64,000 nucleotides of DNA from NCBI GenBank assembly GCA_027482685.1, contig JAIXVU010000009.1:14866-78865 (forward strand), read 5' to 3'. Each line of letters starts with the position of its first letter. The stretch's first letter is position 1. Shown here piece after piece: positions 19,787-61,822 of this stretch. The notes beneath the pieces are model-generated. The model did not search any database. It had not been told where the DNA came from and saw only the letters and a program-made list of their open reading frames with translations. The DNA is from a bacterium. Lineage in GTDB: Bacteria; Patescibacteriota; Minisyncoccia; Phycocordibacterales; UBA5272. The position numbers and the translations under genes were made by a program.

Positions 19787-19972
19787 ATGAACAAGCTTAT
19801 TGAATACTTCAAAGAATCCCAAGCAGAATTAAAAGAAGTTGTTTTCCCAACCACTAATCAAACTATCACCTACACACTTCTTGTGATTGTTATATCTATC
19901 ATCATAGCTGTATTGCTAGGTGCTGTTGATCTTGGTCTTCGTGAAGGACTCGTCAAACTTCTCGCAAGATAG
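19787..19972 (+). CDS. secE: Preprotein translocase subunit SecE
   Basis: The 61-aa ORF has a single TM helix and the conserved position upstream of nusG. Confidence 0.75.
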   Translation: MNKLIEYFKESQAELKEVVFPTTNQTITYTLLVIVISIIIAVLLGAVDLGLREGLVKLLAR

Positions 19973-20028: not shown

Positions 20029-20574
20029 ATGGCTAAACAAGAATTTACAGGAGAGCGTCACTGGTACGCCATCCACACCTACAGTGGTTATGAAAATGCT
20101 GTACAACGTAACCTAAAGCAACGTATTGAGTCTCTTGGTATGGAGGATAAGATTTTCAGTGTTGTTGTTCCACTTGAGAAGAAAATTAAAGTAAAAGGAA
20201 CAAAGCGTGTAGAAGTTGAGGAGAAAATATACCCTGGGTATATTCTCGTGGATATGATAGTAGATGATAATAGTTGGTATGTTGTGCGTAACACTCCGCG
20301 CGTAACAGGTTTCGTTGGTGCTGGCACTACTCCTGTACCGCTTAAGCAAGAAGAGATAGATTTTCTCTTTAGTCGTATGAACACAGGAGAGGTTGAACAT
20401 GATATATCAGTTGAGGTTGGTGAACTTGTTGGTATCATTGATGGTCCGTTTAAGGAGTTTGAAGGCAAGGTGTCAGAGGTTGATAAGGCGCGAGGTAAGC
20501 TCAAGGTGCTTGTTAATATGTTTGGGCGTGAGACACCTGTTGAGCTCGACTTTTTGCAAATAAAGAAGATTTAA
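20029..20574 (+). CDS. nusG: Transcription termination/antitermination factor NusG
   Basis: An NGN domain (HWYAIHTYSGYENAV) and a KOW motif are present, in secE-nusG-rplK synteny. Confidence 0.9.
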   Translation: MAKQEFTGERHWYAIHTYSGYENAVQRNLKQRIESLGMEDKIFSVVVPLEKKIKVKGTKRVEVEEKIYPGYILVDMIVDDNSWYVVRNTPRVTGFVGAGTTPVPLKQEEIDFLFSRMNTGEVEHDISVEVGELVGIIDGPFKEFEGKVSEVDKARGKLKVLVNMFGRETPVELDFLQIKKI

Positions 20575-20584
20575 AAATCGCTTC

Positions 20585-20670
20585 AGTCTACCCGCGTTAA
20601 GAGAGATTTTTATTCCCGCAATGTAGGTCTACTACATCTTGGTCGCAAAAATCTTTCTTGCCTTGCATTT
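20585..20670 (+). repeat. Copy R1 of an ~85-nt structured intergenic repeat family (core AATGTAGGTCTACTACATCTT)
   Basis: The conserved core is flanked by complementary arms GATTTTT...AAAAATC, directly after the nusG stop. Confidence 0.7.
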
Positions 20671-20782
20671 AAAGCAATTTTTGAAATCTTCTTGTACCAA
20701 GCTCGTGGGCTCCTTAATAGCAAATTAGCTCTTGAAATATATTAAAAAACGTGATAGAGTACTATAACTTACAAAAACGATT

Positions 20783-21196
20783 ATGGCAGGAAAGAAAATT
20801 ACAAAATACGTAAAAGTTCAGATAGAAGCGGGTAAAGCTACTCCAGCTCCTCCACTTGGTCCTGCCCTTGGTCAGGCTGGTGTTCAGATTGGAGACTTCG
20901 TTAACAAATTCAATGCTGCAACTCAAGGCAAGCAAGGCCGTATGTCAGTAAAGATCTACGTATACGAAGATCGTACATATGACTTTGTGATCAAGACCCC
21001 AACCGCGACATCTCTTGTTATGAAAGCAGCAAACGTTGCAAAGGGTAACAGTAAAGGAAATGCAGGGACTATCAGTAAAGATAAGATTCGTGAGATTGCA
21101 ACCACAAAGCTTGAAGATCTAACAGCTCACACTGTAGAGCAAGGGATGAAGATTATTGAAGGTACTGCTCGCTCTGCCGGCATCAAAGTCGTTTAG
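20783..21196 (+). CDS. rplK: 50S ribosomal protein L11
   Basis: MAGKKITKYVKVQIEAGKATPAPPLGPALGQAGV is a canonical L11 N-terminus. Confidence 0.9.
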   Translation: MAGKKITKYVKVQIEAGKATPAPPLGPALGQAGVQIGDFVNKFNAATQGKQGRMSVKIYVYEDRTYDFVIKTPTATSLVMKAANVAKGNSKGNAGTISKDKIREIATTKLEDLTAHTVEQGMKIIEGTARSAGIKVV

Positions 21197-21210
21197 CCAT
21201 AAAATAGCCA

Positions 21211-21295
21211 CCTACTTTGTCGCCGAGATATTTTTCTCGGTCAATGTAGGTCTACTACATCTCTCTCGAAAAATATCTCGGCTTCGCGTAGCTGT
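21211..21295 (+). repeat. Copy R2 of the structured intergenic repeat family
   Basis: The arms CCGAGATATTTTTC / GAAAAATATCTCGG surround the core AATGTAGGTCTACTACATCT. Confidence 0.7.
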
Positions 21296-21468
21296 CTCAT
21301 TTTCTGACTAAACATGTTTCGTATCTAAGACCGTTTTTTAATTTTATATATTTACGGTAAAACATAAACAAAACTCCGCATTAGTTGCGGAGTTTTGTTT
21401 TGCCGTGTAGGATTATCTCAGCCCCAGAAATGGGATTTCAGTTCGCTTTAAAATCAGAGGTGTACGTC

Positions 21469-22608
21469 ATGACAACTCAAAGTGTTGGTGCATTCAGTAA
21501 GGACGATCTGACGGCTTTTGTCGTCGCAGGCCGCATTGAAACCTTGGATGGGTTTGATCAAAAACACATCGGTTCTGCGTCAATTGATATTACCGTTGTA
21601 GACGGTGAGGCATACCGCGTTGAGCGCTTAGTGCGCCCGAGTGGAAAACGCGGTGAAAAAGTCCGTGATTTATTTCCTGCTTTGATGCCACGACCAGTTG
21701 AGCTTGGCACGGTACTTGTCCCAGGCGAAAAATATATCGCAAAAGCAACGCTCAACACTAACTTTCCTCCGGATGTCTATGCATATGCAAATGCCAAGTC
21801 AACAAGTGGGCGAAACATGTGTTTGTGTCGCACTCTTGCAGACGGGGTTGAGGGTTATGACACTCTGGATAGGAGGTGGAGTGGTTGGAGTGGTGAGGTC
21901 TGGCTTACAATTGAACCTCTCGTCTTCCCAATTATTCTCACAGACAAGGAATGTTATGCACAGGTGAGAGTTTTTGACGGGGATACTCGTTTCCAAGAAG
22001 AAGATTTGAGGCAAGAATTGATTAAGCAAGATTTACTGTATCGTCAAGATGGCGGTAGATATAAGCAGGGTGAGCTTGCGCTTGCTTCAGGTGATGGAAC
22101 AGTGTTCACGACGTTGTATGCAAAGGCTGGTAAGCTCGTCGGGTTTCGCGCAAGAAGGACCCGTAGACCGCTTCATCTCGAGGATAGAGGGCTTGATCCT
22201 CGTGAGTATTTCGAGCCAGTATACGCGGAGCTTGACCCAAGCGATTCAGATGGCGGGCTCATCACACTCGAACCAGGCTGGTACTACTTGCTGTCGACGA
22301 ACGAGACGCTTGATGTTCCTGAGCATTTGTGTGCTGAGCTTGTTATGCTTCATGCACGCTTCGGGTTGTTCTTCTCACACTTCGCAGGGTTCTTTGATCC
22401 TGGGTTTCGAGGAGTACCAACGCTTGAAGTGACGTGTCTTCTGCCCACCACGATGAGGCACCGTGAAGCTATCGGTTGTTTCCGCTATGAACGCATGCGC
22501 TCAGCGACTGAGTCCTATGCAAAGACGGGTAACTATAGCGGTCAGACTCGTACAACCCTCCCTAAGCAGTTTACAATGCCAGATGAGTGGCGTGCTGCTA
22601 TGGTGTGA
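21469..22608 (+). CDS. dCTP deaminase-like protein with a tandem dUTPase-fold (PF06559-type 2'-deoxycytidine 5'-triphosphate deaminase)
   Basis: The ORF is ~380-407 aa depending on start (ORF-track start 21385; alternative ATGs at 21430 and 21469). The GFFDPGFRG motif resembles the dUTPase/dCTP-deaminase GxxDxGYRG motif. The gene looks markedly GC-richer than its flanks by eye. Confidence 0.4.
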   Translation: MTTQSVGAFSKDDLTAFVVAGRIETLDGFDQKHIGSASIDITVVDGEAYRVERLVRPSGKRGEKVRDLFPALMPRPVELGTVLVPGEKYIAKATLNTNFPPDVYAYANAKSTSGRNMCLCRTLADGVEGYDTLDRRWSGWSGEVWLTIEPLVFPIILTDKECYAQVRVFDGDTRFQEEDLRQELIKQDLLYRQDGGRYKQGELALASGDGTVFTTLYAKAGKLVGFRARRTRRPLHLEDRGLDPREYFEPVYAELDPSDSDGGLITLEPGWYYLLSTNETLDVPEHLCAELVMLHARFGLFFSHFAGFFDPGFRGVPTLEVTCLLPTTMRHREAIGCFRYERMRSATESYAKTGNYSGQTRTTLPKQFTMPDEWRAAMV

Positions 22609-22677
22609 GCTCTGTTTTCCAAGCGGTCCTGTAGGGCCGCTTTTTCTTTTCTTTCTTTTTGTAGTAGAGTAGAAGGT

Positions 22678-23097
22678 ATGAAACTTTTTATAAAAAAATT
22701 ACGTAATGATGCAAGGTTGCCAACTCGTGCTCATGACGACGATGCAGGGATTGATTTATATGCGTGCGGTGAACATAAAGTTCCACCACATGCAACCGCA
22801 ATGATCCCAGCAGGTATTGCGCTTGAGATAGAAGAGGGCTATGTAGGGCTCATTTGGGACAAGTCATCAATTGGTTCTAAAAGTATGAAGACATTAGGTG
22901 GTGTTATTGACGCAGGCTATCGTGGTGAGATAACAGTAATGGTTCATAATTTGAACGATGAGCCATATACATTTGAAAACGGAAATAAAGTTGGTCAGAT
23001 GCTAATACAAAAAGTTGAATTCCCAGAAATTATAGAAGTAACTGAATTGTCAGAGTCTAAACGTGGAACAGGAGGATTCGGAAGTACTGGAAAATAG
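22678..23097 (+). CDS. dut: dUTP diphosphatase
   Basis: AGIDLYA and GVIDAGYRGEITV match dUTPase motifs; the ORF is 139 aa. Confidence 0.85.
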   Translation: MKLFIKKLRNDARLPTRAHDDDAGIDLYACGEHKVPPHATAMIPAGIALEIEEGYVGLIWDKSSIGSKSMKTLGGVIDAGYRGEITVMVHNLNDEPYTFENGNKVGQMLIQKVEFPEIIEVTELSESKRGTGGFGSTGK

Positions 23098-23187
23098 GCT
23101 TATATAGTTTTTGCAAAATCACAATCAAAAAGGTAGGATTGTGACGTACAGCTTGTATAGCTGATTGTTCCTACAGGAGATTGTAAC

Positions 23188-23748
23188 ATGTCAAAGCGTA
23201 CCGTTCAGGTAGTGTGTGCCATTTCTTCACCTGATGGAATTTTTGGTGAAGGGGATGGGTTGCCGTGGAAGTTCGGCAGACCAAACGAGGACTTCAAGAG
23301 GTTCAAAGATCTCACAGGTGAGACCACCAAGGGTTCTGTCATCATGGGACGTGCTACATGGGAATCACTACCGCTAAACTTTCGACCGCTTAAGGGACGA
23401 CAGAATATTGTCGTTACTCGTAATCTTGACTACTACGAAGAAGGCGCTGAGGTCTGCTACTCGTTAGACGAGGCGCTTGAGCGTGCAGAGTCGCCTACTA
23501 TCTCAATCATTGGTGGTAGAGAGTTGGTAAAAGAAGCGCTCGAACGGCATCTCATTGACGTTGCTCACATTACTGTGGTTGAAAAGACATTACCTTCAAC
23601 TGATGCTACGGTGTATTTTCCGCAGCTGTTATCGAGTGAGTTTCTTTTCCATCTTGCAAGCATCTCTGTTGAACAACATACACAAGCATTAGAAGATGGT
23701 GCTTTTGTTAACATTCTTTTCAAGAGATATGAACGTCGTGATACTTGA
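23188..23748 (+). CDS. folA: Dihydrofolate reductase
   Basis: GLPWKF, VIMGRATWESLP and NIVVTRN match DHFR motifs. Confidence 0.8.
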   Translation: MSKRTVQVVCAISSPDGIFGEGDGLPWKFGRPNEDFKRFKDLTGETTKGSVIMGRATWESLPLNFRPLKGRQNIVVTRNLDYYEEGAEVCYSLDEALERAESPTISIIGGRELVKEALERHLIDVAHITVVEKTLPSTDATVYFPQLLSSEFLFHLASISVEQHTQALEDGAFVNILFKRYERRDT

Positions 23749-23842
23749 ACTATCGCAGGGAAAGGGAAACGCGGCCGAGAGGCCGCGTTTTTTGTTATAA
23801 AAGAAAAGCCTTGTCCAAAGACAAGGCTTTCCACGTACAAGA

Positions 23843-24778
23843 TCAAAGCATTTCCGCCGGAATCTTTTCATGTGAACGGTATTTCTCAAGTCGAATATCA
23901 CGCATGGTGAATGAATCAATATCCGTGATATCAGGATTGAGCCAAAGTGTCGGAGCTTCAAGCGGTGTGCGAGAGAGTTGCTCTTTTACCTGGTTGCCGT
24001 GTCCACGAGTGTAGTTCTGTACTTTCTGCTCACCTTCAAGGGCAGCAAGATATACATGACAATCTTCAAGTGTCATGACCAGTTCTCCTGCAACCATGTC
24101 GACACACTGTGCAATCATGTGTAGCAATAATGCATAGCTTGCGATATTGAAGGGGACGCCAAGGAACATATCACAGGACCGCTGGTCCATTGAAAGATCC
24201 AAGAACATTTTGCCGCCTTGAGGATTGGGGCGGACAAAGAGCTGGAACTTCATGTGACAAGGTGGTAAGCACATGTCGTCAATCTCACCAGGGTTCCATG
24301 CATTCACGACATGGTAACGACTGAATGGATCATCTTTCAGTTGATTGATCACTTTCGTAATCTGGTCATAGGTTTTGCCTTGCGCATTGATCCAGTTACG
24401 CCATTGTGCCCCGTAGATGCGACCGCAGTCACCTTCAAACTTTGCTTTTCCTTGGGACGCAAACCGAGCTTGGTCATGCGTCCAGATGTTCCGTGCCTGA
24501 GGTGCTTTACCCATGTATTCATTTAGCTTGGCAAGTGATAATCTGTAACCCGAGTCTTCGCCGGCATCAAGGAACCACAGTAGTTCGGCTTTCACCACTT
24601 CAAATGCAAGGAATTTTGTGGTAACAGCAGGGAATCCTTTTAGCAAATCAAAACGCATCTGGTGTGCGAGTATCGCAGTTGTTACGCCGTTACGGGTTAC
24701 ACGCACTGACCCATTGACCATCGTCTCACGAAGTGCACCCAAGAAGACTTGTTCGTTTGGGTTAATAGAAGAGGTCAT
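23843..24778 (-). CDS. thyA: Thymidylate synthase (ThyA type)
   Basis: AHQMRFDL, LLWFL, and the active site PPCHMKFQLFV are present. The start is taken at MTSSINP, not the upstream ATG. Confidence 0.85.
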   Translation of the reverse strand: MTSSINPNEQVFLGALRETMVNGSVRVTRNGVTTAILAHQMRFDLLKGFPAVTTKFLAFEVVKAELLWFLDAGEDSGYRLSLAKLNEYMGKAPQARNIWTHDQARFASQGKAKFEGDCGRIYGAQWRNWINAQGKTYDQITKVINQLKDDPFSRYHVVNAWNPGEIDDMCLPPCHMKFQLFVRPNPQGGKMFLDLSMDQRSCDMFLGVPFNIASYALLLHMIAQCVDMVAGELVMTLEDCHVYLAALEGEQKVQNYTRGHGNQVKEQLSRTPLEAPTLWLNPDITDIDSFTMRDIRLEKYRSHEKIPAEML

Positions 24779-24943
24779 GTCTGACTCCTGTGAAAGTTGT
24801 TGAAAAATGAACTGCAAACAGCCGTATATACTGTACCGCTTTAAGCGTTGTTTAGCAATATTGCTCTATATATTAAAATTATGTACTCTTTATCTTGGAA
24901 TACAGTCATTCACTGTATGCTTACACAGTAAGGAGAAAGTACA

Positions 24944-25642
24944 ATGTTTGCAAGATTAATTGTCATTGAAGGATCTGATGGTGCGGGGAAGGAAACACAA
25001 GCCGATCTTCTGGCCGGCTCCTTCCGTTCGCAGGGTCGAACAGTTGCAAAGGTATCATTTCCTCGTTACCGAGAGACTCTGGGTGGGATGTTGATATGGG
25101 AGGTCCTCAAAAGTGATCGCGCCTATACGTATAACTTTGCAAAGAGCGACCCGAGATTGGCGAGCATGATGTATGCCGCAGACAGAAAAGAATCACTTCC
25201 TCTTCTTCGTCAACTGATTGAAAAAAACGATGTGGTCATTCTTGATCGTTACGTGGAGTCTAATCTTCTGCATCAGGGTGGCAAGTTTGCTACCGAAGAA
25301 GAGAGGATCCTGTTTGCAAAGTGGCTGTATGACCTTGAGTACGGAGATAACCATCTTCCGAAACCTCATAAGGTTGTCTATCTCTCGCTTCCATTCTGGC
25401 TGTCACGCAAACGTGCTGAGCTACGCGCAGCACAGACCGGCGGCACACTAGATGCAGTGGAGAGAGATACTGCCTACGTTAAGGCTGGGCATGAGTCAGG
25501 TCTTTTCTATGCCAATCACTTCGATTGGTCTGTAATTGATTGCCTTGAAGGCGAGAGAGAGCTTACCCGCGCAGAAGTGCACAAGAAGATATGCGACGTC
25601 GTTGACAATAGCTCGTTTACTCGCCATAAGCAGACGCCATAG
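24944..25642 (+). CDS. tmk: Thymidylate (dTMP) kinase
   Basis: The P-loop IVIEGSDGAGKETQ and LDRY motifs are present. Confidence 0.8.
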   Translation: MFARLIVIEGSDGAGKETQADLLAGSFRSQGRTVAKVSFPRYRETLGGMLIWEVLKSDRAYTYNFAKSDPRLASMMYAADRKESLPLLRQLIEKNDVVILDRYVESNLLHQGGKFATEEERILFAKWLYDLEYGDNHLPKPHKVVYLSLPFWLSRKRAELRAAQTGGTLDAVERDTAYVKAGHESGLFYANHFDWSVIDCLEGERELTRAEVHKKICDVVDNSSFTRHKQTP

Positions 25643-25728
25643 TCGTATTGCAGGCACCAGAACCCAGTTGACCTACGTCAACTGGGTTCTTTCTTTTTAT
25701 TCTCTTCTAAATACGGTACTATAGTGGA

Positions 25729-27495
25729 ATGAATGCATACACAGAAATATATAATTCTCTAAAAGAATTTGCCGGAGAGGCAAACTTTTCACTTGATATT
25801 TCTGAGAGCGTGGCGCATGGAGATTATGCAACTAACGTCGCTTTTGTTCTTAGTAAACAAAAAGGGGTGAGTCCTAAAGTATGCGCTGATGAATTGACAC
25901 AAACTCTAAAAGAAAAAATTTCGAATATTGTGAATGATATACAGGTAGCAGGTCCTGGATTTATCAACTTTTTCTTGCGAGATGATGTACTACGAAAAGA
26001 AAACGAGAGCAGTCAATTAAAATTGGTGACCAGCTATTCTGGTAAGAATATTCTTGTCGAGCACTCATCGCCAAATCTCTTCAAACCATTCTCAGTTGGA
26101 CATCTCATGAATAACATCATCGGTGAGTTTGTGGCACGAGCTGTAAAAGTAGGTGGTGCAAATGTGATGACAATGTCATTTCCGTCCGATGTATCGCTTG
26201 GTATTGCTAAGGCACTCATGATGATTGAAAGAGATATCAATAAACAAGAGATAACAATAGATTATTTTAATAATGAGCAGGAAGATGTTGTTATTAAATA
26301 TCTTGGTGAAGCATACGTAAGAGGTGTTAAAGCGTGTGAGGAAAATGAACAAAGTCTAGAAGATGCAAAAAAAGTTTTAGATAAATTATATAAACATACA
26401 AACACAGGAGGAATCATAGAAGATGAAACTTTTTATCAACTAGTTGGTCGTACGCGAATAATTAATGAGAATTATTTCAAGAAAGTTTTAGAAAGCATAG
26501 ATAGTAAGATTGATGCTTTTGTATATGAAAGTGAAGCTGGTAATGCTGGGCTAGAAATTGTTAAAGAAAATACAGGTGAAGGAAAAGTATTTACAGAAAG
26601 TGAAGGAGCTATTGTCTATATTCCACATGAAGATAGAAAAGATATTAATACGTCTGTATTTATTAATAGCCAAGGATATCCAACATATGAAGCAAAGGAT
26701 ATTGGATTAATTACTATTAAGTTTAGTGGAGCGTTTGGATTACAAAATGTTAAAGATTTTATACCAGAAGAGTCATTCTTTATAACAGACGCGGAACAGA
26801 TTTCACATTTCAAAGTGGTGTTAGATGCTGCTAGTAAACTAGGAGGTGATTGGCCAGAGTGGGTAGCAAAGAGTCACCATGTTCCACATGGACGTATGCT
26901 ATTCAAAGGAGCGAAGATGTCGAGTAGGTTAGGTGGTGTACCGCTTGCACTTGATGTGATCGGCGTTGTTGAGGAAGAGGTACGAGAACGAGCAGGTGAG
27001 AAAATTGCCCATCTTGGCGATGAGGAGAAGAAGAAGTTAGAACGTGATATAGCCCTCTCTGCGCTTCGTGTTGCAGTGCTACGTAGCAAGCCTGGGATTA
27101 ATATCAACTTTGATCCAGAGACGTCGCTATCATTTGAAGGGGACTCAGGACCATATCTTCTCTACACACACGCACGATGTAGTTCGTTGCTTGAAAAAGG
27201 CAAAGAGAAAGGATACGAGCCAATATTTGGAGATGTTGCATCTCTTCCTATCGAGCACGAGCTCGTAGCATTTGAGCTCGTACTTAAAGATGCGGTAGAG
27301 ACACTTGCTCCACAGAAGCTTGTCACGTATCTCTTCAAAGTTGCTCAGGCATTTAACTCATTTTATGGGAATACACAGATTGTTACTGATAACAAAGAAG
27401 AATCAGAGCACAGCCTCGCAATTGTAACTCGTGTGAAGTTTGTCCTCAAAGAAGGGCTCCATGTCCTTGGAATAAATGCTCCTGAGAGAATGTAG
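25729..27495 (+). CDS. argS: Arginyl-tRNA synthetase
   Basis: The 588-aa ORF has a class I core and a C-terminal DALR anticodon-binding domain. Confidence 0.8.
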   Translation: MNAYTEIYNSLKEFAGEANFSLDISESVAHGDYATNVAFVLSKQKGVSPKVCADELTQTLKEKISNIVNDIQVAGPGFINFFLRDDVLRKENESSQLKLVTSYSGKNILVEHSSPNLFKPFSVGHLMNNIIGEFVARAVKVGGANVMTMSFPSDVSLGIAKALMMIERDINKQEITIDYFNNEQEDVVIKYLGEAYVRGVKACEENEQSLEDAKKVLDKLYKHTNTGGIIEDETFYQLVGRTRIINENYFKKVLESIDSKIDAFVYESEAGNAGLEIVKENTGEGKVFTESEGAIVYIPHEDRKDINTSVFINSQGYPTYEAKDIGLITIKFSGAFGLQNVKDFIPEESFFITDAEQISHFKVVLDAASKLGGDWPEWVAKSHHVPHGRMLFKGAKMSSRLGGVPLALDVIGVVEEEVRERAGEKIAHLGDEEKKKLERDIALSALRVAVLRSKPGININFDPETSLSFEGDSGPYLLYTHARCSSLLEKGKEKGYEPIFGDVASLPIEHELVAFELVLKDAVETLAPQKLVTYLFKVAQAFNSFYGNTQIVTDNKEESEHSLAIVTRVKFVLKEGLHVLGINAPERM

Positions 27496-28769: not shown

Positions 28770-31700
28770 ATGAACGACAACAAACCAAAATCAGTTAATG
28801 AAAAAGAACTAGAGACACTTGCTTTCTGGCAAGAGAATCACATCTTTGAAAAGTCAGTTGCAACTCCCGCAGGAGATATTTCAAAAGGAGCATATTCATT
28901 TTATGATGGGCCACCATTTGCAACAGGGCTTCCTCACCATGGATCACTTATGGCAGGGACGGTGAAAGATGTTATTCCTCGGTATCAGACAATGAAAGGG
29001 AATAGTGTTCGTCGTGTGTGGGGGTGGGATTGTCATGGGCTACCGATTGAGAACTTGATTGAAAAGAAGCTCGGGTTAAGGAGTAAGAAGGATATTGAGG
29101 AATACGGAATTGATAAATTTAATCGTGATGCATATGAGAGTGTGCTAGAGTACGAGGAAGAATGGAAGAGTATTATTCCACGAGTAGGTAGATGGGTTGA
29201 TATGGAGCATCCATACAAAACAATGGATGCAACGTATACCGAAAGTATATGGTGGGCGTGGAAGACACTCTACGAGAAAGGTCTCGCATACGAAGGGAAT
29301 AAGATGATGCACATCTGTCCGAGATGTGAGACACCACTTGCACAATCTGAGGTTGGTCTTGAATATACTGATGTCACAGATATATCGGTGACGGCAAAGT
29401 TTGAGCTTGCGGATGAGCCGGGGACATTTGTTCTTGCGTGGACAACTACTCCGTGGACATTACCAGGGAATACTGCTCTTGCTGTGAATAAGGATATTAT
29501 TTATGCAAAAGTAAAAACTATTGTAGAAGGACATACATCTCATTATATTTTAGCGAAAAGTAAAATAGAAGAATATTTTAAGAATGATACCACTATAGAA
29601 ATTATAGAAGAATTTGCTGGCGATACACTTATTGGAAAATCATACAATCCAGTATTCCCATATTTTATAGACAAAGAAATTGAAAACAAAAAAAACATTT
29701 GGAAGATTTGGCATGCGGATTTTATAACAGAAGATGCAGGAACTGGTATTGCGCATGAAGCACCAGCGTTTGGTGCAGAAGATATGGAGCTTGCAAAAGC
29801 ACATAACATTCCGATTATCAAACACGTAAAAATGGACGGAACATTCACCTCTGATGTTGCAGATTTTGCCGGAATGAAAGTGAAGCAGAAAGATGATACA
29901 CAATCTGCTGATATAGAGATCATCAAATGGCTTGCACATAATGGCAAGTTATTTGAGAAGCATAAGATAATTCACTCATATCCGCTCTGTTGGAGGTGCA
30001 AGACACCGCTACTTAACTACGCAACATCATCATGGTTCGTTGATGTTCCAAAGATGAAAGATAAACTCATAGCAGAAAACCAAAAGATAGGCTGGACCCC
30101 AGAACACATTAGAGATGGGAGGTTCGGTAAGTGGCTAGAAGGCGCTCGTGAATGGGCAGTATCACGAACACGTTACTGGGGAGCACCGCTTCCTGTATGG
30201 AAGTCAGATGATGGAGATATGAAAGTTATCGGCTCACTTAAAGAGCTTGCTGAATTTTCAACCAAGAAACCAAAAAATATATATTTTGCAGTTCGTCATG
30301 GTGAGTCACTTAGTAATATCAATCATGTACTTGATACACATCGTGATCCAGATAACCATCTGACTGAACGTGGTCGCGAGCAGGCAAAACATGCAGGGGA
30401 GTTCGCAAAGACTAAAGGAGTAGATGTTATCTTGGCTTCGCCATATGTACGTACACAAGAAACAGCCACTATCATTGGTGAGCATCTAGGGGTTCCTGTT
30501 ATTACGCATGAAGATTTGCAGGAGTTTAACGTTGGTATCTTTTCAGGAAAGAGTGTTGATGATTTGCATGCGTATCAACATACAAACATTCATTCATTTG
30601 ATGACCGTATAGAAAAAGGTGAGTCATATCGTGATGTCATGTATCGTATGATGCGAGTAGTTCATGAGTGTGAAGAAAAGTATGAAGGGAAGAAAATACT
30701 TTTCGTGACACATGGCTCACCACTATGGATGTTCCAGATGACAGCAACGCTTACAACAGATGAGGACATGATGAAGGATGTGTTAAGCAAAGAAGATGTT
30801 TCACCAGCAAATGGTCATGTTTTCCACATAACACCGTATATCGTTCCGCGTGACGAAACAGGAGCCGTTAATCTCCATCGTCCATATATTGATAGTGTAG
30901 AACTTACAATTGATGGAAAGATATATAAGCGAATACCTGATGTGTTTGATTGCTGGTTTGAGTCAGGGTCCATGCCGTTTGCATCGATTCATTATCCATT
31001 TGAGAACAGAGAAGTCTTTGACAAAAATTATCCTGCAGACTTTATCGCAGAGAGCATGGACCAGACACGTGGATGGTTTTATTCATTAATCAACTTAGGT
31101 GTTGGTTTATTTGACAAAGCACCATACAAGCATGTTATTTGTAATGGCTTAATTAATGCAGCAGACGGGAAAAAGTTAAGTAAGAGTCTCAGTAACTACA
31201 CCGACCCATTACTCTTGGTCGAGAAGTTCGGTGCAGATGCCTTTAGATATTATTTAATGTCTAGCCCTGTTGTAAAAGGCGAAGGAGTTAACTTTGATGA
31301 TAAAGAGTTAGAAGATGTATACAAAAAGTGTGTGAGTCGTCTTGATAATGTTGTTCAATTGTACGAGATGAATAAACCAGAGAGTGTTGTTGCAAAAAAT
31401 ACTTCACCAAAAGTTCTTGATATCTGGATGGTATCTCGCGTTCATGAGGTGGTTCGTGATGCAACACTTGGATATGATGCGTACAAGTTAGATGAGGCGA
31501 CACGAGGGATTGCAGGCATCATTGATGATGTATCTGTGTGGTATACACGCAGGTCACGCGACCGTTTGAAGGGGGATACAGGAGTAGAAGACCAGTTGTT
31601 TGCTTACGAGACTCTGACTTATGTTCTACAGAGTCTTGCAAAAGTTATGGCACCCGTTATGCCGTTTATTGCTGAGCGGGTATATCAAGGCGCAGGCGGC

Positions 31701-32204
31701 AAAAAAGAATCAGTTCATCTAGAGAGTTGGCCAGAAGTGGGTGAAATTAATAATAATGTCCTTACATCGATGAAGCAAACTCGTGATCTTGTTTCAGAAG
31801 TATTGATGACACGAAATAAACTAAATATTCCTGTTCGACAACCACTCGCAACACTGACTATATCCTGTACAATTACAGATGAGTATCTTGATATCATTAA
31901 AGATGAAGTTAATGTCAAAAATATTATACGAGGTGATACGATGTTACTTGATACAGTGATTACCCCAGAATTACAAACTGAAGGAGATATTCGTAATCTA
32001 ATGCGCGCCATTCAAGACGCTCGTAAACAGATGGGGCTTTCACCTAGAGATGAAGTTAAACTTATAACGTCATACTCTATACCAGAGCTACATACAGCAG
32101 AACTTATGAAGACTTGTAATGTAGTACAAATAGAAAATGGAGAAGGAGAGTACAAAGCTGAGACAGTAACCGGCACTGTTGTATTTGGACTAACTAAAAT
32201 CTAA
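28770..32204 (+). CDS. ileS: Isoleucyl-tRNA synthetase (type 2) carrying an inserted histidine-phosphatase (PGAM-like) domain
   Basis: HHG/HIGH-like PHHGSLMAG, KMSKS (KLSKSLSNY), and the CP1 editing domain are present. Residues ~504-690 (nt ~30279-30836) carry the RHGESxxN and THG histidine-phosphatase motifs between WAVSRTRYWGAPLPVW and DCWFESGSMPF. Confidence 0.85.
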   Translation: MNDNKPKSVNEKELETLAFWQENHIFEKSVATPAGDISKGAYSFYDGPPFATGLPHHGSLMAGTVKDVIPRYQTMKGNSVRRVWGWDCHGLPIENLIEKKLGLRSKKDIEEYGIDKFNRDAYESVLEYEEEWKSIIPRVGRWVDMEHPYKTMDATYTESIWWAWKTLYEKGLAYEGNKMMHICPRCETPLAQSEVGLEYTDVTDISVTAKFELADEPGTFVLAWTTTPWTLPGNTALAVNKDIIYAKVKTIVEGHTSHYILAKSKIEEYFKNDTTIEIIEEFAGDTLIGKSYNPVFPYFIDKEIENKKNIWKIWHADFITEDAGTGIAHEAPAFGAEDMELAKAHNIPIIKHVKMDGTFTSDVADFAGMKVKQKDDTQSADIEIIKWLAHNGKLFEKHKIIHSYPLCWRCKTPLLNYATSSWFVDVPKMKDKLIAENQKIGWTPEHIRDGRFGKWLEGAREWAVSRTRYWGAPLPVWKSDDGDMKVIGSLKELAEFSTKKPKNIYFAVRHGESLSNINHVLDTHRDPDNHLTERGREQAKHAGEFAKTKGVDVILASPYVRTQETATIIGEHLGVPVITHEDLQEFNVGIFSGKSVDDLHAYQHTNIHSFDDRIEKGESYRDVMYRMMRVVHECEEKYEGKKILFVTHGSPLWMFQMTATLTTDEDMMKDVLSKEDVSPANGHVFHITPYIVPRDETGAVNLHRPYIDSVELTIDGKIYKRIPDVFDCWFESGSMPFASIHYPFENREVFDKNYPADFIAESMDQTRGWFYSLINLGVGLFDKAPYKHVICNGLINAADGKKLSKSLSNYTDPLLLVEKFGADAFRYYLMSSPVVKGEGVNFDDKELEDVYKKCVSRLDNVVQLYEMNKPESVVAKNTSPKVLDIWMVSRVHEVVRDATLGYDAYKLDEATRGIAGIIDDVSVWYTRRSRDRLKGDTGVEDQLFAYETLTYVLQSLAKVMAPVMPFIAERVYQGAGGKKESVHLESWPEVGEINNNVLTSMKQTRDLVSEVLMTRNKLNIPVRQPLATLTISCTITDEYLDIIKDEVNVKNIIRGDTMLLDTVITPELQTEGDIRNLMRAIQDARKQMGLSPRDEVKLITSYSIPELHTAELMKTCNVVQIENGEGEYKAETVTGTVVFGLTKI

Positions 32205-39625: not shown

Positions 39626-39712
39626 CACCTACTTCGTTACAGAATGTTTTTGCTCCCGCAATGTAGGTCTACTACATCTTGGCCGCAAAAACATTCTGTG
39701 CCTCGTATCTGC
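39626..39712 (+). repeat. Copy R3 of the structured intergenic repeat family
   Basis: The arms CAGAATGTTTTTGC / GCAAAAACATTCTG surround the core AATGTAGGTCTACTACATCTT. Confidence 0.7.
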
Positions 39713-39976: not shown

Positions 39977-39993
39977 ACAGACAAAATTAGTTC

Positions 39994-40076
39994 ATCTACT
40001 TTGTCGCTACGTTATTTTTCTCAGTCGCCGTACTAGTATGTACGTCTTCTTCTAAAAATCCCTATGCTCCTTGTAG
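39994..40076 (+). repeat. Copy R5 (diverged) of the structured intergenic repeat family
   Basis: TACTTTGTCGC...TATTTTTC...CTAAAAATCC follows the family architecture, but the core is degenerate. Confidence 0.5.
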
Positions 40077-40234
40077 CTAAACCAATTTTCTCTGTTTAAA
40101 GAGTTTAGCAAGTAATATATAAAGTAAAACACCACTTCGTAAGAAGTGGTGTTTTACTTTGGCAAAGTTATTATTTTTTGGTAGTATGTAAAGTATTAAA
40201 CCATTAACTATTAACCACTAACTACCAACTATTT

Positions 40235-40846
40235 ATGCACCCAAAGAAAGAAAGAACATTTGTTATTCTAAAGCCTGACGCAATTCAACGCGGTCTCGTT
40301 GGAGAGATTATTAAACGTTTTGAACGTATCGGTCTTAAGATAGTTGCTATGAAGATGCATATGGTAGATGAAAAGACTCTCTGGGCTCACTACAATAAAG
40401 ATGATGCATGGTATCTGAAGAAAGGTGAGAGAATTGCTGAGAATAAAAAATCTCTCGGTCACACGATTGATAAAGAACCAATTGAATACGGCAAAGATAT
40501 TATCCGTGCCATGGTGCACTATATGTGCGCAGGACCTGTTGTATCACTTGTGATAGAGGGTAACAATTCTCAAGCAGTAGTTAAGCGTCTTGTTGGCGGC
40601 ACAGAACCAGCTACAGCAGATAGCGGAACTATCCGTGGAGATTTTGCTATAGATTCATATATGCTCTGTGACACTGATGGTTCCCGTGGTATGCGTAATC
40701 TCATTCATTGTACTGACCCAGCAGATGGAGAGGGGGCATACGATAGAGAAGTTGCTCTGTGGTTCACAAAAGAAGAATTACATGACTATCGTCTAGTAAC
40801 TGAAGCTATGTTATATGATGTAAATTTGGACGGAATTCTTGAGTAA
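40235..40846 (+). CDS. ndk: Nucleoside diphosphate kinase (long form with an insertion)
   Basis: ERTFVILKPDAIQRGLVGEII and the active-site His region NLIHCTD are present. Confidence 0.75.
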   Translation: MHPKKERTFVILKPDAIQRGLVGEIIKRFERIGLKIVAMKMHMVDEKTLWAHYNKDDAWYLKKGERIAENKKSLGHTIDKEPIEYGKDIIRAMVHYMCAGPVVSLVIEGNNSQAVVKRLVGGTEPATADSGTIRGDFAIDSYMLCDTDGSRGMRNLIHCTDPADGEGAYDREVALWFTKEELHDYRLVTEAMLYDVNLDGILE

Positions 40847-44440: not shown

Positions 44441-44454
44441 CAAAATACTACCAC

Positions 44455-44540
44455 ATGTACTTTGTCGCAATAGGATTTTTGTAAGTCATCGTAGGTCTAC
44501 TACACCTCCTTATAAAAATCCTTAGGCTTCGCGTATCTAA
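44455..44540 (+). repeat. Copy R4 of the structured intergenic repeat family
   Basis: The arms AGGATTTTT / AAAAATCCT surround the core CGTAGGTCTACTACACCTCC. Confidence 0.65.
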
Positions 44541-49617: not shown

Positions 49618-50283
49618 TTATTTTTTTACAACATCAATAATCTTACCGTTGATAAGGAAATCATCCTGGCTCGAAATATAAATTGGTTTATGTATTGAAT
49701 TACTTGATTCGGATATAAGAGATATTCTTCCAGACGCAATATCTCTGTGGTACTTTTTTATATTTGCGTATCCGTCGAGGATAGACAGTACATAGTCTCC
49801 AGACAATGGGTTTGTATGTGTAGGGTCAACCAACACAAGGTCTCCATCCTCAATGTTCTTGTCATTAATCTTTGCCTTGTTCATTGAGTCACCCTCAACC
49901 CATAACGCAAAGTAGTTTTTATTATTTCCTAACACCTTCTTGGAAACCTTTATGTAGCCCTCTATGTTCTCTTCTGCTGTTAGGGTAGCTAGACCAGCAT
50001 TTGCGGAACCTAGGATTGGAACACTTATAGAATCTAATCCTTTTTGAGACAGGAAGGGTGTCTTTATAAGTTTGTTTTCGTTTATTTCTATTGAACGAGC
50101 TTTATTAGTTGTTTTTTCGAGATAACCAAGTTTCTGAAGATTGTTAATATGGTACTGAGCAGCTGAGGGATGGGCCATAAACTCTGAAAAGTTGTTCGCT
50201 ATCTCCTCCAAAGAGGGAGCAATATTATTCTTTTGAGCATAGGAGACAACGAAATCATACACCATTTTTTGTTTTTTGGTCAT
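49618..50283 (-). CDS. LexA/CI-like S24 peptidase repressor
   Basis: An N-terminal wHTH (YDFVVSYAQKNNIAPSLEEIANN) is combined with C-terminal S24 motifs (ALWVEGDSM with the Ser nucleophile; Lys further downstream). Confidence 0.7.
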   Translation of the reverse strand: MTKKQKMVYDFVVSYAQKNNIAPSLEEIANNFSEFMAHPSAAQYHINNLQKLGYLEKTTNKARSIEINENKLIKTPFLSQKGLDSISVPILGSANAGLATLTAEENIEGYIKVSKKVLGNNKNYFALWVEGDSMNKAKINDKNIEDGDLVLVDPTHTNPLSGDYVLSILDGYANIKKYHRDIASGRISLISESSNSIHKPIYISSQDDFLINGKIIDVVKK

Positions 50284-51878: not shown

Positions 51879-51974
51879 TTTACTTAATACTACATAAGTA
51901 TTAGAATTAGGTCATACAATTGAATATAAGTAGCCTAAACCAGTGAGTAATCGCTGGCATGGTGAATAAGACCG

Positions 51975-52688
51975 TTGAAGATAAAAAACCCATCATGTGG
52001 GATTTGTCTTCAACGGCCATATCTGGAAACGGATATGGAGAGCGTAAGCTCTCACTCACGTGGTGGGCTTTTTGTATTCTCACCACTTACTAAACATTAT
52101 TTTATGACTACACAGAAAAATAAAAAACATAGTGTGTGGGGATGGGTGCTAGTAGGGTTTGGGGCACTGCTTTTACTTACTAAAGCGTTCTCGCTGGCGT
52201 TACTTGTCCTACTAGGGGGCTGCCTATTAATTATCAATAAAAAAGCAAAGGTTGGAGATGGTGACAAAGAGGTGTTGAAGGCTAAAGCGAGTAAGCAACG
52301 AAAATATCTTTTTGTTTCATTTGTAATTGCATACTTTAGCTTTTCTGTATTTAACTACTTCCAAAATCTTCCTGCAGAAGAAGTGAAGACTGTTGTTTCT
52401 CCAGAGCAAAAGCAAAAAGATCTTCAAACACTAAAAGAGACTATGGCTATTCTGACAGAAAACAAACTAGCCACTTCATACGAGTTTTCAGAAAATGCAA
52501 ATGTTGTTTATGTAAGTGGCAAGTGGTACGGCTTGACAGCTCAAGAAAAGAAAGAGTTGCTAACTAGTATTGGTAATGTAAAAGATGTAGCAACTGGATA
52601 TCGTTGGTTTGAAGTAAGAGATGCTTACTCAGATGAGTTGGTTGCTAAGGTGACTGCATTCACTGGCTCGGTGGAGATTTATAAGTAA
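51975..52688 (+). CDS. Hypothetical membrane protein (island cargo operon, gene 3)
   Basis: A TM segment WVLVGFGALLLLTKAFSLALLVLLGGCLLII is present. An alternative start is at 52104. A terminator hairpin GCACCCTCTCCATTGCTGGAGAGGGTGC follows at 52869-52896. Confidence 0.45.
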   Translation: MKIKNPSCGICLQRPYLETDMESVSSHSRGGLFVFSPLTKHYFMTTQKNKKHSVWGWVLVGFGALLLLTKAFSLALLVLLGGCLLIINKKAKVGDGDKEVLKAKASKQRKYLFVSFVIAYFSFSVFNYFQNLPAEEVKTVVSPEQKQKDLQTLKETMAILTENKLATSYEFSENANVVYVSGKWYGLTAQEKKELLTSIGNVKDVATGYRWFEVRDAYSDELVAKVTAFTGSVEIYK

Positions 52689-55186: not shown

Positions 55187-56890
55187 GTGATAGCGAGTAC
55201 TTCGACCACAAAAATTATGTCTACATCAAACCAAAACAACACCAACTTAAAGTATGTTCTCTATGCACGTCGCTCAATTGTCGCGAATAAGACAGAGGAG
55301 GACAAAGGTATACCGTCCATTGAATCTCAACTAACTGAAGTTAGAGAACTTGCTCAAAATGAAGGGCGTGTAATTGTGAAAGAATTTAAAGAGACAATGT
55401 CAGCGAGTGAGCCAGGGATACGTCCAGAGTTTACTAAAATGATTGAGTACATTAAGTCTGGTAAAGCAAACGCAATCATTTGCTTCAAAATGGATAGATT
55501 AGCAAGAAACTCAGTTGATGAGGGAGTGATTAAACACTTACTTCAAAAAGGGAAAATACAGTGTATTCGTTCTACTGATAGAGAGTGGAGTACAGATGAC
55601 CACACACTCATCTGGTCAGTAGAGTTTGGAACTTCTACACAGTATTCTCGTGACTTGAAGAAGCACATTAAACGTGGGCAGAATGAAGCTCTACGGCGTG
55701 GGTTTAGGCCAGGGCTTGCTCCAATTGGCTACAAGAATACTAAGTACCGAGAGCAAGGCATGGACGAATCTATTGTGGTAGACGAAGAGAACTTTACGAT
55801 TCTACGCAAGATGTTTGATTATATTCTTTCGGGGAAGCATACACCATTCCAAGTGCTTAAAATCGCGACCGAGGAATGGGGAATTCGTTCTCGTAAAACA
55901 CGTCGCTACCCAAAAGGTAGACCTCTTTCAAAAGCTGCTTGGTATAGCATCCTTTCAAACCCATTCTATTATGGAGAGTTTGAGTACCCTATTGGGTCGG
56001 GGGTTTGGACGAAAGGAAAGCATAAACCACTCATTACACAGGGTGAGTTTGAAACAGTCCAGCAGATACTTAATAAAGATGCTCCTCGTCCTAAAACCCA
56101 CAATCATGCATACGTTGGTCTAATGCGTTGCGGACAATGTGGAGCTCGTGTTACTTGTGAAGCAAAGGTAAAGAAGCAGAAGAATGGTAATGTACATTAT
56201 TACTCTTATTATCATTGTACGGGGCAGGTCGACTCAAGCTGTACACAGAAGTCAGTTAGACAAGATGTCTTAGAGGAGCAAATAATCGAATTCTTTTCTT
56301 CGATGAAAATATCACACTCATTTCATGAGTGGGCTATTGCAGAACTTAAAAGTGAGTATGAGCGTGAGAGAAACGATAAGACGACCATCTTGTACAACCA
56401 GCATAGAGAGCATTTCAAGATAAAGGAAATGCTTGACCGGTTGTTTGACATGAGAGTTGCTGGGGAAATAGATTCTGATCGCTATCTTGAGGAGAAGGCA
56501 AGATTAGAAACTGAGGAGAGGAGATTAGCAGGACAGCTTGAGGTCATAAACACACGAGTTCAAACATGGGTTCATGACGCAAAACGCCTCATGACCTTCG
56601 CAGAACGAGTCATAGATGAGTTCAAGAACGGCACTATTGATAAAAAGAGGGCAATATTTGCATCTCTTGGAACAGAGCATGTCCTTTTAGACAGAAAGTT
56701 GACTGTAAAGACAGAAAAACCACTTCTTGTTATTCAAGAAATGGTTTCTGCTGCGAACGCAGTAGGTAAACCATTAGAACCTGCTACTTTCCTTAGTCTG
56801 CAAGGTCAAAATGGCAAAATACTACCTACTGGTCCACCCTTGTGGAGGTGGGCGGAATCGAACCGCCGTGTAATAAGGTATGAGATATAA
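55187..56890 (+). CDS. Large serine recombinase (phage-type integrase)
   Basis: The N-terminal resolvase catalytic domain (YARRSIV...SIESQ), the recombinase domain, the zinc ribbon CGQCGARVTC...YYSYYHC, and a coiled-coil are present. The 3' end overlaps the ssrA 3' end antisense. Confidence 0.8.
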   Translation: MIASTSTTKIMSTSNQNNTNLKYVLYARRSIVANKTEEDKGIPSIESQLTEVRELAQNEGRVIVKEFKETMSASEPGIRPEFTKMIEYIKSGKANAIICFKMDRLARNSVDEGVIKHLLQKGKIQCIRSTDREWSTDDHTLIWSVEFGTSTQYSRDLKKHIKRGQNEALRRGFRPGLAPIGYKNTKYREQGMDESIVVDEENFTILRKMFDYILSGKHTPFQVLKIATEEWGIRSRKTRRYPKGRPLSKAAWYSILSNPFYYGEFEYPIGSGVWTKGKHKPLITQGEFETVQQILNKDAPRPKTHNHAYVGLMRCGQCGARVTCEAKVKKQKNGNVHYYSYYHCTGQVDSSCTQKSVRQDVLEEQIIEFFSSMKISHSFHEWAIAELKSEYERERNDKTTILYNQHREHFKIKEMLDRLFDMRVAGEIDSDRYLEEKARLETEERRLAGQLEVINTRVQTWVHDAKRLMTFAERVIDEFKNGTIDKKRAIFASLGTEHVLLDRKLTVKTEKPLLVIQEMVSAANAVGKPLEPATFLSLQGQNGKILPTGPPLWRWAESNRRVIRYEI

Positions 56891-57356
56891 GTCTACTGTA
56901 CGTAGTTTGCTTACTTATAGAGTTTGCGAATTTGGCGATCTTCTTTGTCAAAGCTATTAATTTTATCATCACCGTACTGTATGTACGACTTTTCAAAAAT
57001 AGATGCTTTTCCTTGAAGCTCATCCAAATTCGCAAACTCTATGTTTTGCATGTATCGTCTAAAGCAAACGAAAGTGATACATGTATAGCATAATTACTTC
57101 GAACTAGTTGCTATGCAACACCTAGTTCTACATCTACTGTTATATTGCCCGCAGTCTATCCGTAGATACGAGAGAGAGGGACACCAGATCGGCCAGTATT
57201 TAGGCGAATGCTGGAACTAGACCTGCCATGTATGGCGAAGGAATAGCCTTACCAGTTGTTTTTGCAACATGGGCTCTCGAAAGGGTACGAGTTCTCGAGA
57301 AGTCTCGGTACAGCACATAGATCATATTCTTAGTATCGAAGCCAAAGATCACCCCC
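56843..57356 (-). ncRNA. ssrA: tmRNA (ssrA), unusually long at ~514 nt; CCA not encoded
   Basis: The 5' end GGGGGUGAUCUUUGGCUUCGA is consensus-like. The 3' tRNA-like domain is GGCGG-UUCGAUU-CCGCC followed by CACCUCC-A, and the acceptor has a G3:U wobble. It lies immediately downstream of smpB on the same strand. A candidate tag ORF GCA...GCAUUCGCCUAA would end in ...PAFA*. Confidence 0.65.
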
Positions 57357-61652: not shown

Positions 61653-61725
61653 GCATCCATAGCTCAGTTGGTAGAGCCGTCGTCTTATACACGACTGGTC
61701 CCTGGTTCGAGTCCAGGTGGATGCA
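61653..61725 (+). tRNA. tRNA-Ile(UAU); CCA not encoded
   Basis: The acceptor GCATCCA pairs with TGGATGC. The D-arm is TAGCTCAGTTGGTAGAGC. The anticodon stem GTCGT/ACGAC carries loop CTTATAC, giving anticodon TAT. The T-loop is TTCGAGT. Confidence 0.7.
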
Positions 61726-61822
61726 CTTTGGGGATAAGGTGCAGATGAAATCAAAACATGATTTAGTGGACATGCTCTTGTTCCTGATTGCTCGTGTAGA
61801 TGAGAATATGTAACCAGTTAGA

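Follow-up and report, generated by a model that had tools for sequence, protein, structure and literature searches.

In Escherichia coli, thymidylate is supplied through the deoxycytidine triphosphate (dCTP) deaminase route by six enzymes, encoded by dcd, dut, thyA, folA, tmk and ndk, whose genes are scattered and whose classical Dcd has a 190-amino-acid homotrimer subunit. We analyzed a 64,000-nucleotide stretch of DNA from a bacterium of the Patescibacteriota (NCBI GenBank assembly GCA_027482685.1, contig JAIXVU010000009.1; this whole stretch is hereafter called the window), in which the same six enzyme families follow the same reaction order, but five of the genes are contiguous and lie directly after secE-nusG-rplK, and the deaminase is a fused two-domain form. 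Thymidylate synthases are known for lateral transfer, for displacement of ThyA and FolA by ThyX and for a sporadic distribution (Stern et al. 2010, PMC2826268). The alternative dCTP- and deoxycytidine monophosphate (dCMP)-deaminase routes are likewise prone to transfer (PMC10733785), and there is a report of thyA having been transferred into Patescibacteria (PMC12455944). The relatives of the present locus resemble these systems in carrying either ThyA with FolA or ThyX, and either a dUTPase-fold Dcd or a deaminase of the cytidine deaminase (CDA) family; here, however, the genomes are closely related and all the alternatives sit in one slot flanked by conserved genes, and the displacement is visible in place. 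Mosaic operons, with xenologous gene displacement in situ, were reportedly described by Omelchenko et al. in 2003. The concept of in-situ xenologous displacement was also used in PMC3542571. The locus resembles such operons in its conserved neighbourhood, the incongruent phylogenies of its members and their very unequal divergence, but its block probably comprises several transcription units, and adjacent deaminase, synthase, kinase and ArgRS positions are all affected.

The reading that we favour, with a probability of roughly 0.78, is that the window carries a lineage-typical thymidylate-supply locus of Paceibacterota (Parcubacteria, OD1-L1-like), in which an ancestral frame is fixed and individual genes have been exchanged in place. 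An earlier note made from the sequence alone (the original prediction) had described a five-gene block for deoxythymidine triphosphate (dTTP) synthesis, with thyA convergent, between secE-nusG-rplK and argS. Pfam and NCBIfam profile searches of the open reading frames (ORFs) of the window confirmed these identities, and all five block genes scored above the Pfam thresholds. The genes of the frame and of the pathway are as follows.

19787 to 19972, + strand: secE (Pfam SecE, E = 2e-17), opening the conserved upstream frame and found in the same place in relatives
20029 to 20574, + strand: nusG (Pfam NusG and KOW), 85–96% identical in amino acids to most relatives
20783 to 21196, + strand: rplK, encoding L11 (Pfam Ribosomal_L11_N and Ribosomal_L11), closing the upstream frame
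21469 to 22608, + strand: dcd-like gene for a two-domain protein of 379 amino acids (Pfam DCD_N, DCD_C and DCD; GFFDPGFRG motif)
22678 to 23097, + strand: dut, dUTPase (TIGR00576, 137.4 bits, cutoff 102.55; PF00692, 93.7 bits, cutoff 22)
23188 to 23748, + strand: folA, dihydrofolate reductase (Pfam DHFR_1, PF00186, 88.5 bits against 25)
23843 to 24778 (longer ORF to 24817), − strand: thyA of type 1, 311 amino acids (Pfam Thymidylat_synt, PF00303, 269.6 bits; TIGR03284, 251.7 bits against 108.35)
24944 to 25642, + strand: tmk, predicted deoxythymidine monophosphate (dTMP) kinase (Pfam Thymidylate_kin, PF02223, 60.1 bits against 27)
25729 to 27495, + strand: argS of type A (Pfam Arg_tRNA_synt_N, tRNA-synt_1d and DALR_1), the downstream border of the variable slot
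28770 to 32204: ileS, downstream of argS
40235 to 40846, + strand: ndk (tblastn with E. coli Ndk, E = 8e-20; Pfam NDK, 115 bits)

In the NCBIfam search of the window ORFs, folA reached no equivalog cutoff and tmk scored under the cutoffs of TIGR00041 (59.2 against 83.25) and NF005923 (122.8 against 193). The window ThyA, whose 311-amino-acid form is an exact database entry (P0094), fell below the narrower PRK01827 equivalog cutoffs (260 against 327). The ndk gene lies 15 kb from the block within the window and encodes 203 amino acids; the match of its NDK domain to the Pfam model falls into two segments, which points to an insertion, the usual protein having ~140 amino acids. Neither glyA nor folD was found in the window.

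We collected related loci from contigs encoding homologues of the deaminase, FolA and ThyA and by scanning a single genome for each GTDB species with a profile. About 25 were obtained (designated here by L numbers), and all the named ones belong to Patescibacteria (Paceibacterota, Parcubacteria, Nomurabacteria, Kaiserbacteria etc.). The order SIMPL-secE-nusG-rplK-deaminase-dut-(variable)-argS-ileS-recO was observed in ~20 independent Patescibacteria loci from different assemblies. A deaminase gene directly follows rplK in ~20 loci, with identities of the deaminase (hereafter DCD) to that of the window of 31–80%, and dut stands next to the deaminase gene in nearly all of them. Because this frame is shared even by loci whose DCDs are only 31–46% identical to that of the window, the position of the block after rplK is best read from gene order as ancestral to the clade and not as a recent insertion. 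Conservation of the gene order after rplK across the lineage, which had been set beforehand as evidence against an acquired module, was found for the frame, and the exact five-gene order and orientation of the window recurred in at least three loci (L033/L034 and L035).

Within the frame, the occupants of individual positions differ strongly among relatives. Flank identities to the window are flat over the relatives (54–61% for a tetratricopeptide repeat (TPR) protein, 37–46% for a flavin adenine dinucleotide (FAD) oxidase), and those of the DCD range from 46% to 80%. The closest locus by its flanks is L035 (TPR protein 72%, RplK 97%, ArgRS 69%), in which Dut (78%) and ThyA (74%) are also close, but its two-domain DCD, which is likewise GC-rich at third codon positions, is only 31% identical to that of the window. 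At the deaminase position, L036 (9184–9759) carries a canonical one-domain Dcd of 191 amino acids (TIGR02274, 163 bits), and L031 (1744–2358) carries a 204-amino-acid protein of the dCMP/cytidine-deaminase family (Pfam dCMP_cyt_deam_1; ComEB-like, with a score short of the NCBIfam cutoff).

Between dut and argS, the contents of the slot also vary. ThyA of type 1 was found in the window, L035, L036, L019 and L022, and ThyA of type 2 in L002, L009, L011, L012, L014, L030, L031 and L033, where it is accompanied by FolA in variable orientation. The two types are ~37–40% identical, and type 2 (448–484 bits on NF002497) passes the PRK01827-equivalog cutoffs that the window ThyA misses. Four further loci (L006, L010, L013 and L018) carry a long ThyX, and a short ThyX-like gene was found in L020, L023 and L024. 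The slot also holds several types of Tmk across the loci, and glyA and folD as extras in L012. The window FolA belongs to a small family (56–73% identity), and 3 of 3 contigs checked (L030, L031 and L033/L034) carry folA at the same locus. At the border of the slot, two types of argS that are ~37% identical occupy the same syntenic position in a mosaic distribution that does not follow the flank tree (loci L002–L036), which suggests that ArgRS may also have been replaced in situ.

Two of these loci showed irregularities of annotation or sequence. On the minus strand of L005/L024 (12112–13173) lies an ORF of 353 amino acids, with a GC content at third codon positions (GC3) of 0.76 and 65% identity to the ThyX-like gene of L023; the deposited calls place + strand ORFs there instead (276 amino acids, no Pfam hit), and the strand of this GC-rich cassette was probably called wrongly. 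In L012 (12260–13033, minus strand), thyA of type 2 is split into ORFs of 135 and 90 amino acids, possibly as a pseudogene or through an assembly error, in a slot that also contains folA, tmk, glyA and folD.

We compared bootstrap neighbour-joining trees of nine concatenated flank proteins (3,437 columns) and of the DCD (370 columns). The flank tree grouped L002 with L010 and L012 (100%) and L014 with L022 (100%), whereas in the DCD tree the partner of L002 was the window (98.5%) and that of L014 was L015 (100%). A phylogeny of the dcd-like gene had been proposed as a check on its history, and the DCD tree indeed conflicts with the flank tree at nodes with 98–100% bootstrap support. Conserved synteny, incongruence and substitution by analogues are found together, and the locus is probably a mosaic shaped by xenologous or non-orthologous gene displacement in situ. 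The claim that at least part of the block was acquired horizontally is accordingly upheld by the tree conflict and by the xenologues and analogues in relatives, but neither a phage source nor an insertion at this position can be retained from it.

We computed GC3 for each of 60 window genes and compared the block with the other 55 ORFs, which formed a background of 0.317 ± 0.055. The values of the block genes are as follows.

dcd-like gene: GC3 0.45, rank 5 of 60
dut: GC3 0.26, rank 51 of 60
folA: GC3 0.41, rank 6 of 60
thyA: GC3 0.47, rank 3 of 60
tmk: GC3 0.47, rank 2 of 60

The GC3 of dcd, folA, thyA and tmk differed significantly from that of the rest (Mann-Whitney test, P = 6e-5), the block mean was the highest among all runs of five consecutive window genes, and the GC content stepped from ~0.39 to 0.44–0.47 across 21–26 kb. 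The original prediction had noted GC-richness in the first gene of the block; the excess is significant, but it is raised in four genes and not in dut. Among relatives, the deaminase and thyA or other synthase gene showed a GC3 excess in most loci, with a DCD no lower than background in 20 of 22, and dut was at or below background almost everywhere. Loci such as L017 and L025 have a GC3 of 0.56–0.67. We take the raised GC3 of the four genes as a sign that they were repeatedly imported from GC-richer members of the same gene pool, with dut as the resident, compositionally native and positionally stable member.

Among described systems, the two-domain dCTP deaminase (PF06559 DCD_N and PF22569 DCD_C; PRK07559; structure 2R9Q from Agrobacterium tumefaciens) is closest to the product of the first gene of the block. 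The relation of this gene to the dCTP deaminase family, as originally proposed, held in profile searches, with both domains in one chain (PF06559, 69.8 bits, cutoff 21.4; PF22569, 77 bits, cutoff 22; PF22769, 107.6 bits). The protein matched 2R9Q by sequence over its full length (E = 1.8e-22, 23% identity). An AlphaFold model built from 23 homologues (predicted local distance difference test 90.5, predicted template modelling (TM) score 0.88) gave 2R9Q as the top Foldseek match (E = 8e-28, TM 0.80/0.88–0.91, root-mean-square deviation 2.6 Å over ~355–365 columns), whereas single-domain Dcd structures covered only half of the model. The tandem dUTPase-fold reading is therefore correct, but the proposed length of 380–407 amino acids is less likely than 379. 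Homologues have 376–383 amino acids and begin at the residue equivalent to the ATG at 21469, a GAGGTG Shine-Dalgarno sequence lies upstream of this ATG, and the 407-amino-acid ORF starting with TTG (from 21385) spans a terminator-like hairpin (21366–21400); for these reasons the gene most probably starts at ATG 21469. The protein scored 146.7 bits against the PRK07559 equivalog, short of the cutoff of 283, and in view of this and of the 23% identity to 2R9Q it appears to represent a divergent branch in Patescibacteria, whose equivalent function is likely but not certified. Within the clade, at least two deeply split versions exist that are 31% identical.

The N-terminal half keeps K111-S112-x-x-G115-R116 and has no catalytic Glu, and the C-terminal half keeps R298, D311 (the DPGF Asp) and E321 (the TLE Glu); all these residues are invariant in the 23 homologues. 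In the alignment to the Dcd of Mycobacterium tuberculosis (Mtb; 2QXX), the Ser of the C-terminal half is replaced by Met. The catalytic set is complete across both halves, with the Glu (E. coli E138, Mtb E129), the Ser and Arg of K-S-S-x-x-R and the DPGF Asp. The two halves, complementary in their catalytic motifs, may thus form one composite active site, at which dCTP would be converted to deoxyuridine triphosphate (dUTP). Since a separate dut adjoins the deaminase in nearly all loci, the enzyme is suggested to be monofunctional. A role of the deaminase in anti-phage defence was also considered and rejected; PADLOC matched neither the DCD nor dut nor thyA, and its one hit was a weak, tmk-like one (PDC-M51B).

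Judging from family membership, the block would work as follows. The two-domain Dcd would supply dUTP from dCTP, Dut would hydrolyse it to deoxyuridine monophosphate (dUMP) and pyrophosphate, and ThyA would methylate dUMP to dTMP with methylenetetrahydrofolate (CH2-THF), while FolA would recycle the resulting dihydrofolate and regenerate tetrahydrofolate for ThyA. Tmk would then phosphorylate dTMP to deoxythymidine diphosphate (dTDP), and the distal Ndk (40235–40846) may provide the step to dTTP that is missing from the block.

Hairpins in the spacers bear on how the block may be transcribed, and the following candidates were detected.

21366 to 21400: intrinsic-terminator-like hairpin in the rplK/dcd spacer, which would end the rplK transcript ahead of the dcd-like gene, 15-bp stem with 6 GC pairs, T-run on the + strand
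22621 to 22642, + strand: terminator-like hairpin directly 3' of the dcd-like gene, 9-bp stem with 6 GC pairs, then a T-run
23803 to 23832: hairpin between the convergent folA and thyA (shared terminator), 13-bp stem with 6 GC pairs
25659 to 25690, + strand: terminator-like hairpin after tmk, 14-bp stem with 7 GC pairs, then a T-run

Because such hairpins bracket dcd, lie between folA and thyA and follow tmk, the block probably consists of about four terminator-bounded units (dcd, dut-folA, thyA and tmk) and not of one operon, and separate units suit cassette-wise replacement. Promoter prediction performed at chance level (17 sites against 17.6 expected), and no regulatory RNA was found upstream of the dcd-like gene, where no Rfam family matched at gathering thresholds or at E ≤ 1. 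The spacer between rplK and dcd is also marked by a ~90-nucleotide intergenic hairpin repeat, which is not part of the pathway; the copy that had been predicted there was present at 21209–21293. The copies in the window, all on the + strand, are as follows.

20590 to 20680, + strand: just downstream of nusG
21209 to 21293, + strand: just downstream of rplK
39626 to 39710, + strand: just downstream of ssb
39993 to 40080, + strand: in the ssb-ndk spacer
44454 to 44538, + strand: after a SLOG-family gene

In the repeat (repeat families D1–D3), a long outer stem encloses a palindromic core, ATGTAGGTCTACTACAT, that is conserved. The arms of the stem covary, with compensatory changes in 19 of 34 predicted pairs among the five copies. 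The exact core also occurs after rplK in the relative L014, and the repeat matched no Rfam family.

We most probably see the outcome of homologous recombination anchored in the highly conserved flanks, by which the genes of a fixed frame would behave as exchangeable cassettes, with xenologues or functional analogues taking their places. The donors would be mainly Patescibacteria, and there appear to be possible donors outside the candidate phyla radiation (CPR) for ThyA type 2. A stronger version holds that host-dependent Paceibacterota exchange their DNA-precursor genes at a dedicated hot spot, the rplK-ileS interval, which we regard as a tentative and rather doubtful extension. Under it, the near-identical nusG-rplK on one side and the structured hairpin repeats in the spacers would constitute the fixed frame, into which deaminase, thymidylate-synthase, kinase and ArgRS cassettes would be repeatedly re-imported, and the drivers could be adaptation to host nucleotide pools or pressure from phages or inhibitors on thymidylate metabolism. 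If this were true, the persistently high GC3 would reflect a continuing flow from GC-richer Patescibacteria and not a single old event.

A purely vertical history was weighed against exchange in place. It would require that the high GC3 of dcd, thyA and tmk be gene-specific, for example because codon choice or mRNA is under selection, and that short alignments, rate variation or the sorting of paralogues have produced spurious conflicts between the trees. The position of the locus is conserved everywhere, as this history predicts, and the recurrence of high GC3 in DCD and low GC3 in dut among relatives would fit a stable gene-specific trait. Several points weigh against exchange in place, some of them shared with the vertical history. 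The trees are only of the neighbour-joining type and the alignments short (370 columns for DCD); the flank concatenate is possibly mosaic itself, as IleRS and ArgRS also show odd patterns; and the GC3 excess, recurring as it does in most relatives, could reflect gene-specific constraint instead of import. The terminators are pattern matches, with 11 found against 7.1 ± 2.6 expected. The deaminase falls short of its equivalog cutoff as described above, its activity is deduced from sequence, and our literature search found no biochemical characterisation of the two-domain form. Finally, the absence of rplA in this genome refers to the 64-kb window. However, vertical divergence cannot yield unrelated folds in one slot, such as a dUTPase-fold Dcd and a CDA-family deaminase, or ThyA and ThyX. 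It is equally at odds with L035, where flanks of 69–97% identity accompany a DCD of 31%, with ThyA types that differ far more than their host flanks, and with conflicting nodes at 98–100% bootstrap. We therefore consider a purely vertical history unlikely.

The original prediction had named a phage as a possible source, and we searched viral sequences for relatives of the block. In this account, the block or its GC-rich genes would be cargo from a CPR virus that became fixed beside rplK. Genes for thymidylate synthase, dihydrofolate reductase and dUTPase are common in phages (4,114 phage records contain a ThyA homologue), and four of the five block genes are compositionally atypical. However, the best phage ThyA was only 41% identical to that of the window (tblastn, 50,697 phage records), against 58–76% for more than 60 metagenomic clusters, of which the named ones are Paceibacterota or Parcubacteria, and the DCD had no tblastn match in the same phage records. 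IMG/VR was scanned with the single DCD protein, which gave no close relative there, and with a 23-sequence profile, which gave only two contigs with distant two-domain DCD-like genes (28–29% identity, 53% GC); neither carries dut, thy or tmk beside them. No integrase, attachment repeat or phage gene adjoins the block, and the flanks are housekeeping genes (secE, nusG, rplK, argS and ileS) kept in ~20 loci. The phage source was thus not borne out, and we regard it as very improbable.

An equally improbable account is that a recent insertion displaced rplA-rplJ-rplL in this particular genome. It starts from the fact that rplK normally precedes rplA, and a search for rplA, rplJ and rplL by tblastn with E. 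coli L1, L10 and L7/L12 as queries gave no significant match in the window; the question of whether these genes lie elsewhere was answered to this extent. Nor was there a Pfam hit for Ribosomal_L1, L10 or L12 on the called genes of ~7–10 kb around the annotated relative loci (less at contig ends). A large group of Parcubacteria, OD1-L1, has been described as being without rpL1 (PMC5220378, PMC7304191, bioRxiv 10.1101/2022.01.07.475337), and these papers cite Brown et al. 2015 for its definition by the missing ribosomal protein L1. Neither the window nor any related locus has rplA after rplK, which agrees with that group; the relatives are labelled Nomurabacteria, Kaiserbacteria, Paceibacterota or Parcubacteria, and the window organism may be OD1-L1-like as judged from 64 kb. 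The adjacency of rplK and deaminase is old, being shared by loci with DCDs as low as 31–46% identical, and the claim that the module was inserted in the place of rplA did not survive these comparisons; what had been taken as a missing rplA is a lineage-wide and already described peculiarity and not an insertion event.

The least credible account, that assembly or binning joined a GC-richer foreign fragment into the contig as the GC step over 21–26 kb might hint, was rejected because short contigs from other sequencing runs encode identical proteins (L001, SRR16126878, where a + strand gene lies downstream of tmk; L029, SRR16126876, with thyA beside a divergent neighbouring gene) and the same order was assembled independently in L033/L034 and L035, and dut inside the block has native composition.

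Some further features of the window were recorded. The LOOT RNA motif (RF03000) was matched strongly at 51932–52053 (+ strand), with 96.7 bits against a gathering threshold of 46.4, and the match overlaps the start of a 237-amino-acid ORF without a Pfam hit; this ORF was suspected to be rplA, and the suspicion was dropped for want of a Pfam hit. Between 49618 and 57356, a large serine recombinase (55187–56890) abuts the 3' end of a transfer-messenger RNA gene (56840–57356, minus strand), and ahead of it lie a LexA/S24-type repressor (49618–50283, minus strand) and several ORFs that have no Pfam hit, in a region that is possibly an integrated element. A tRNA-Ile with the anticodon TAT (UAU) lies at 61653–61726 (+ strand); this anticodon is an uncommon bacterial way of reading AUA codons.

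The enzymes and the pathway are textbook knowledge and the position is a lineage trait; the locus is neither a new system nor a phage gift, but a good, if not unprecedented, example of in-situ gene displacement. The presence of the module had been called notable in itself, and this is weakened because groundwater Patescibacteria are described as having dTMP synthesis in their minimal repertoire (PMC12455944) and because the cluster is widespread in the clade. The value of the locus is comparative: it offers an unusually clean series from nature, where different xenologues or unrelated analogues fill every step of thymidylate supply in one frame. The two-domain Dcd family also emerges as an uncharacterised enzyme. 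On this reading, the minimal essential DNA-precursor genes of ultra-small Patescibacteria undergo frequent replacement, which matters for metabolic reconstruction, for phylogeny and for the use of markers of horizontal gene transfer in CPR genomes.

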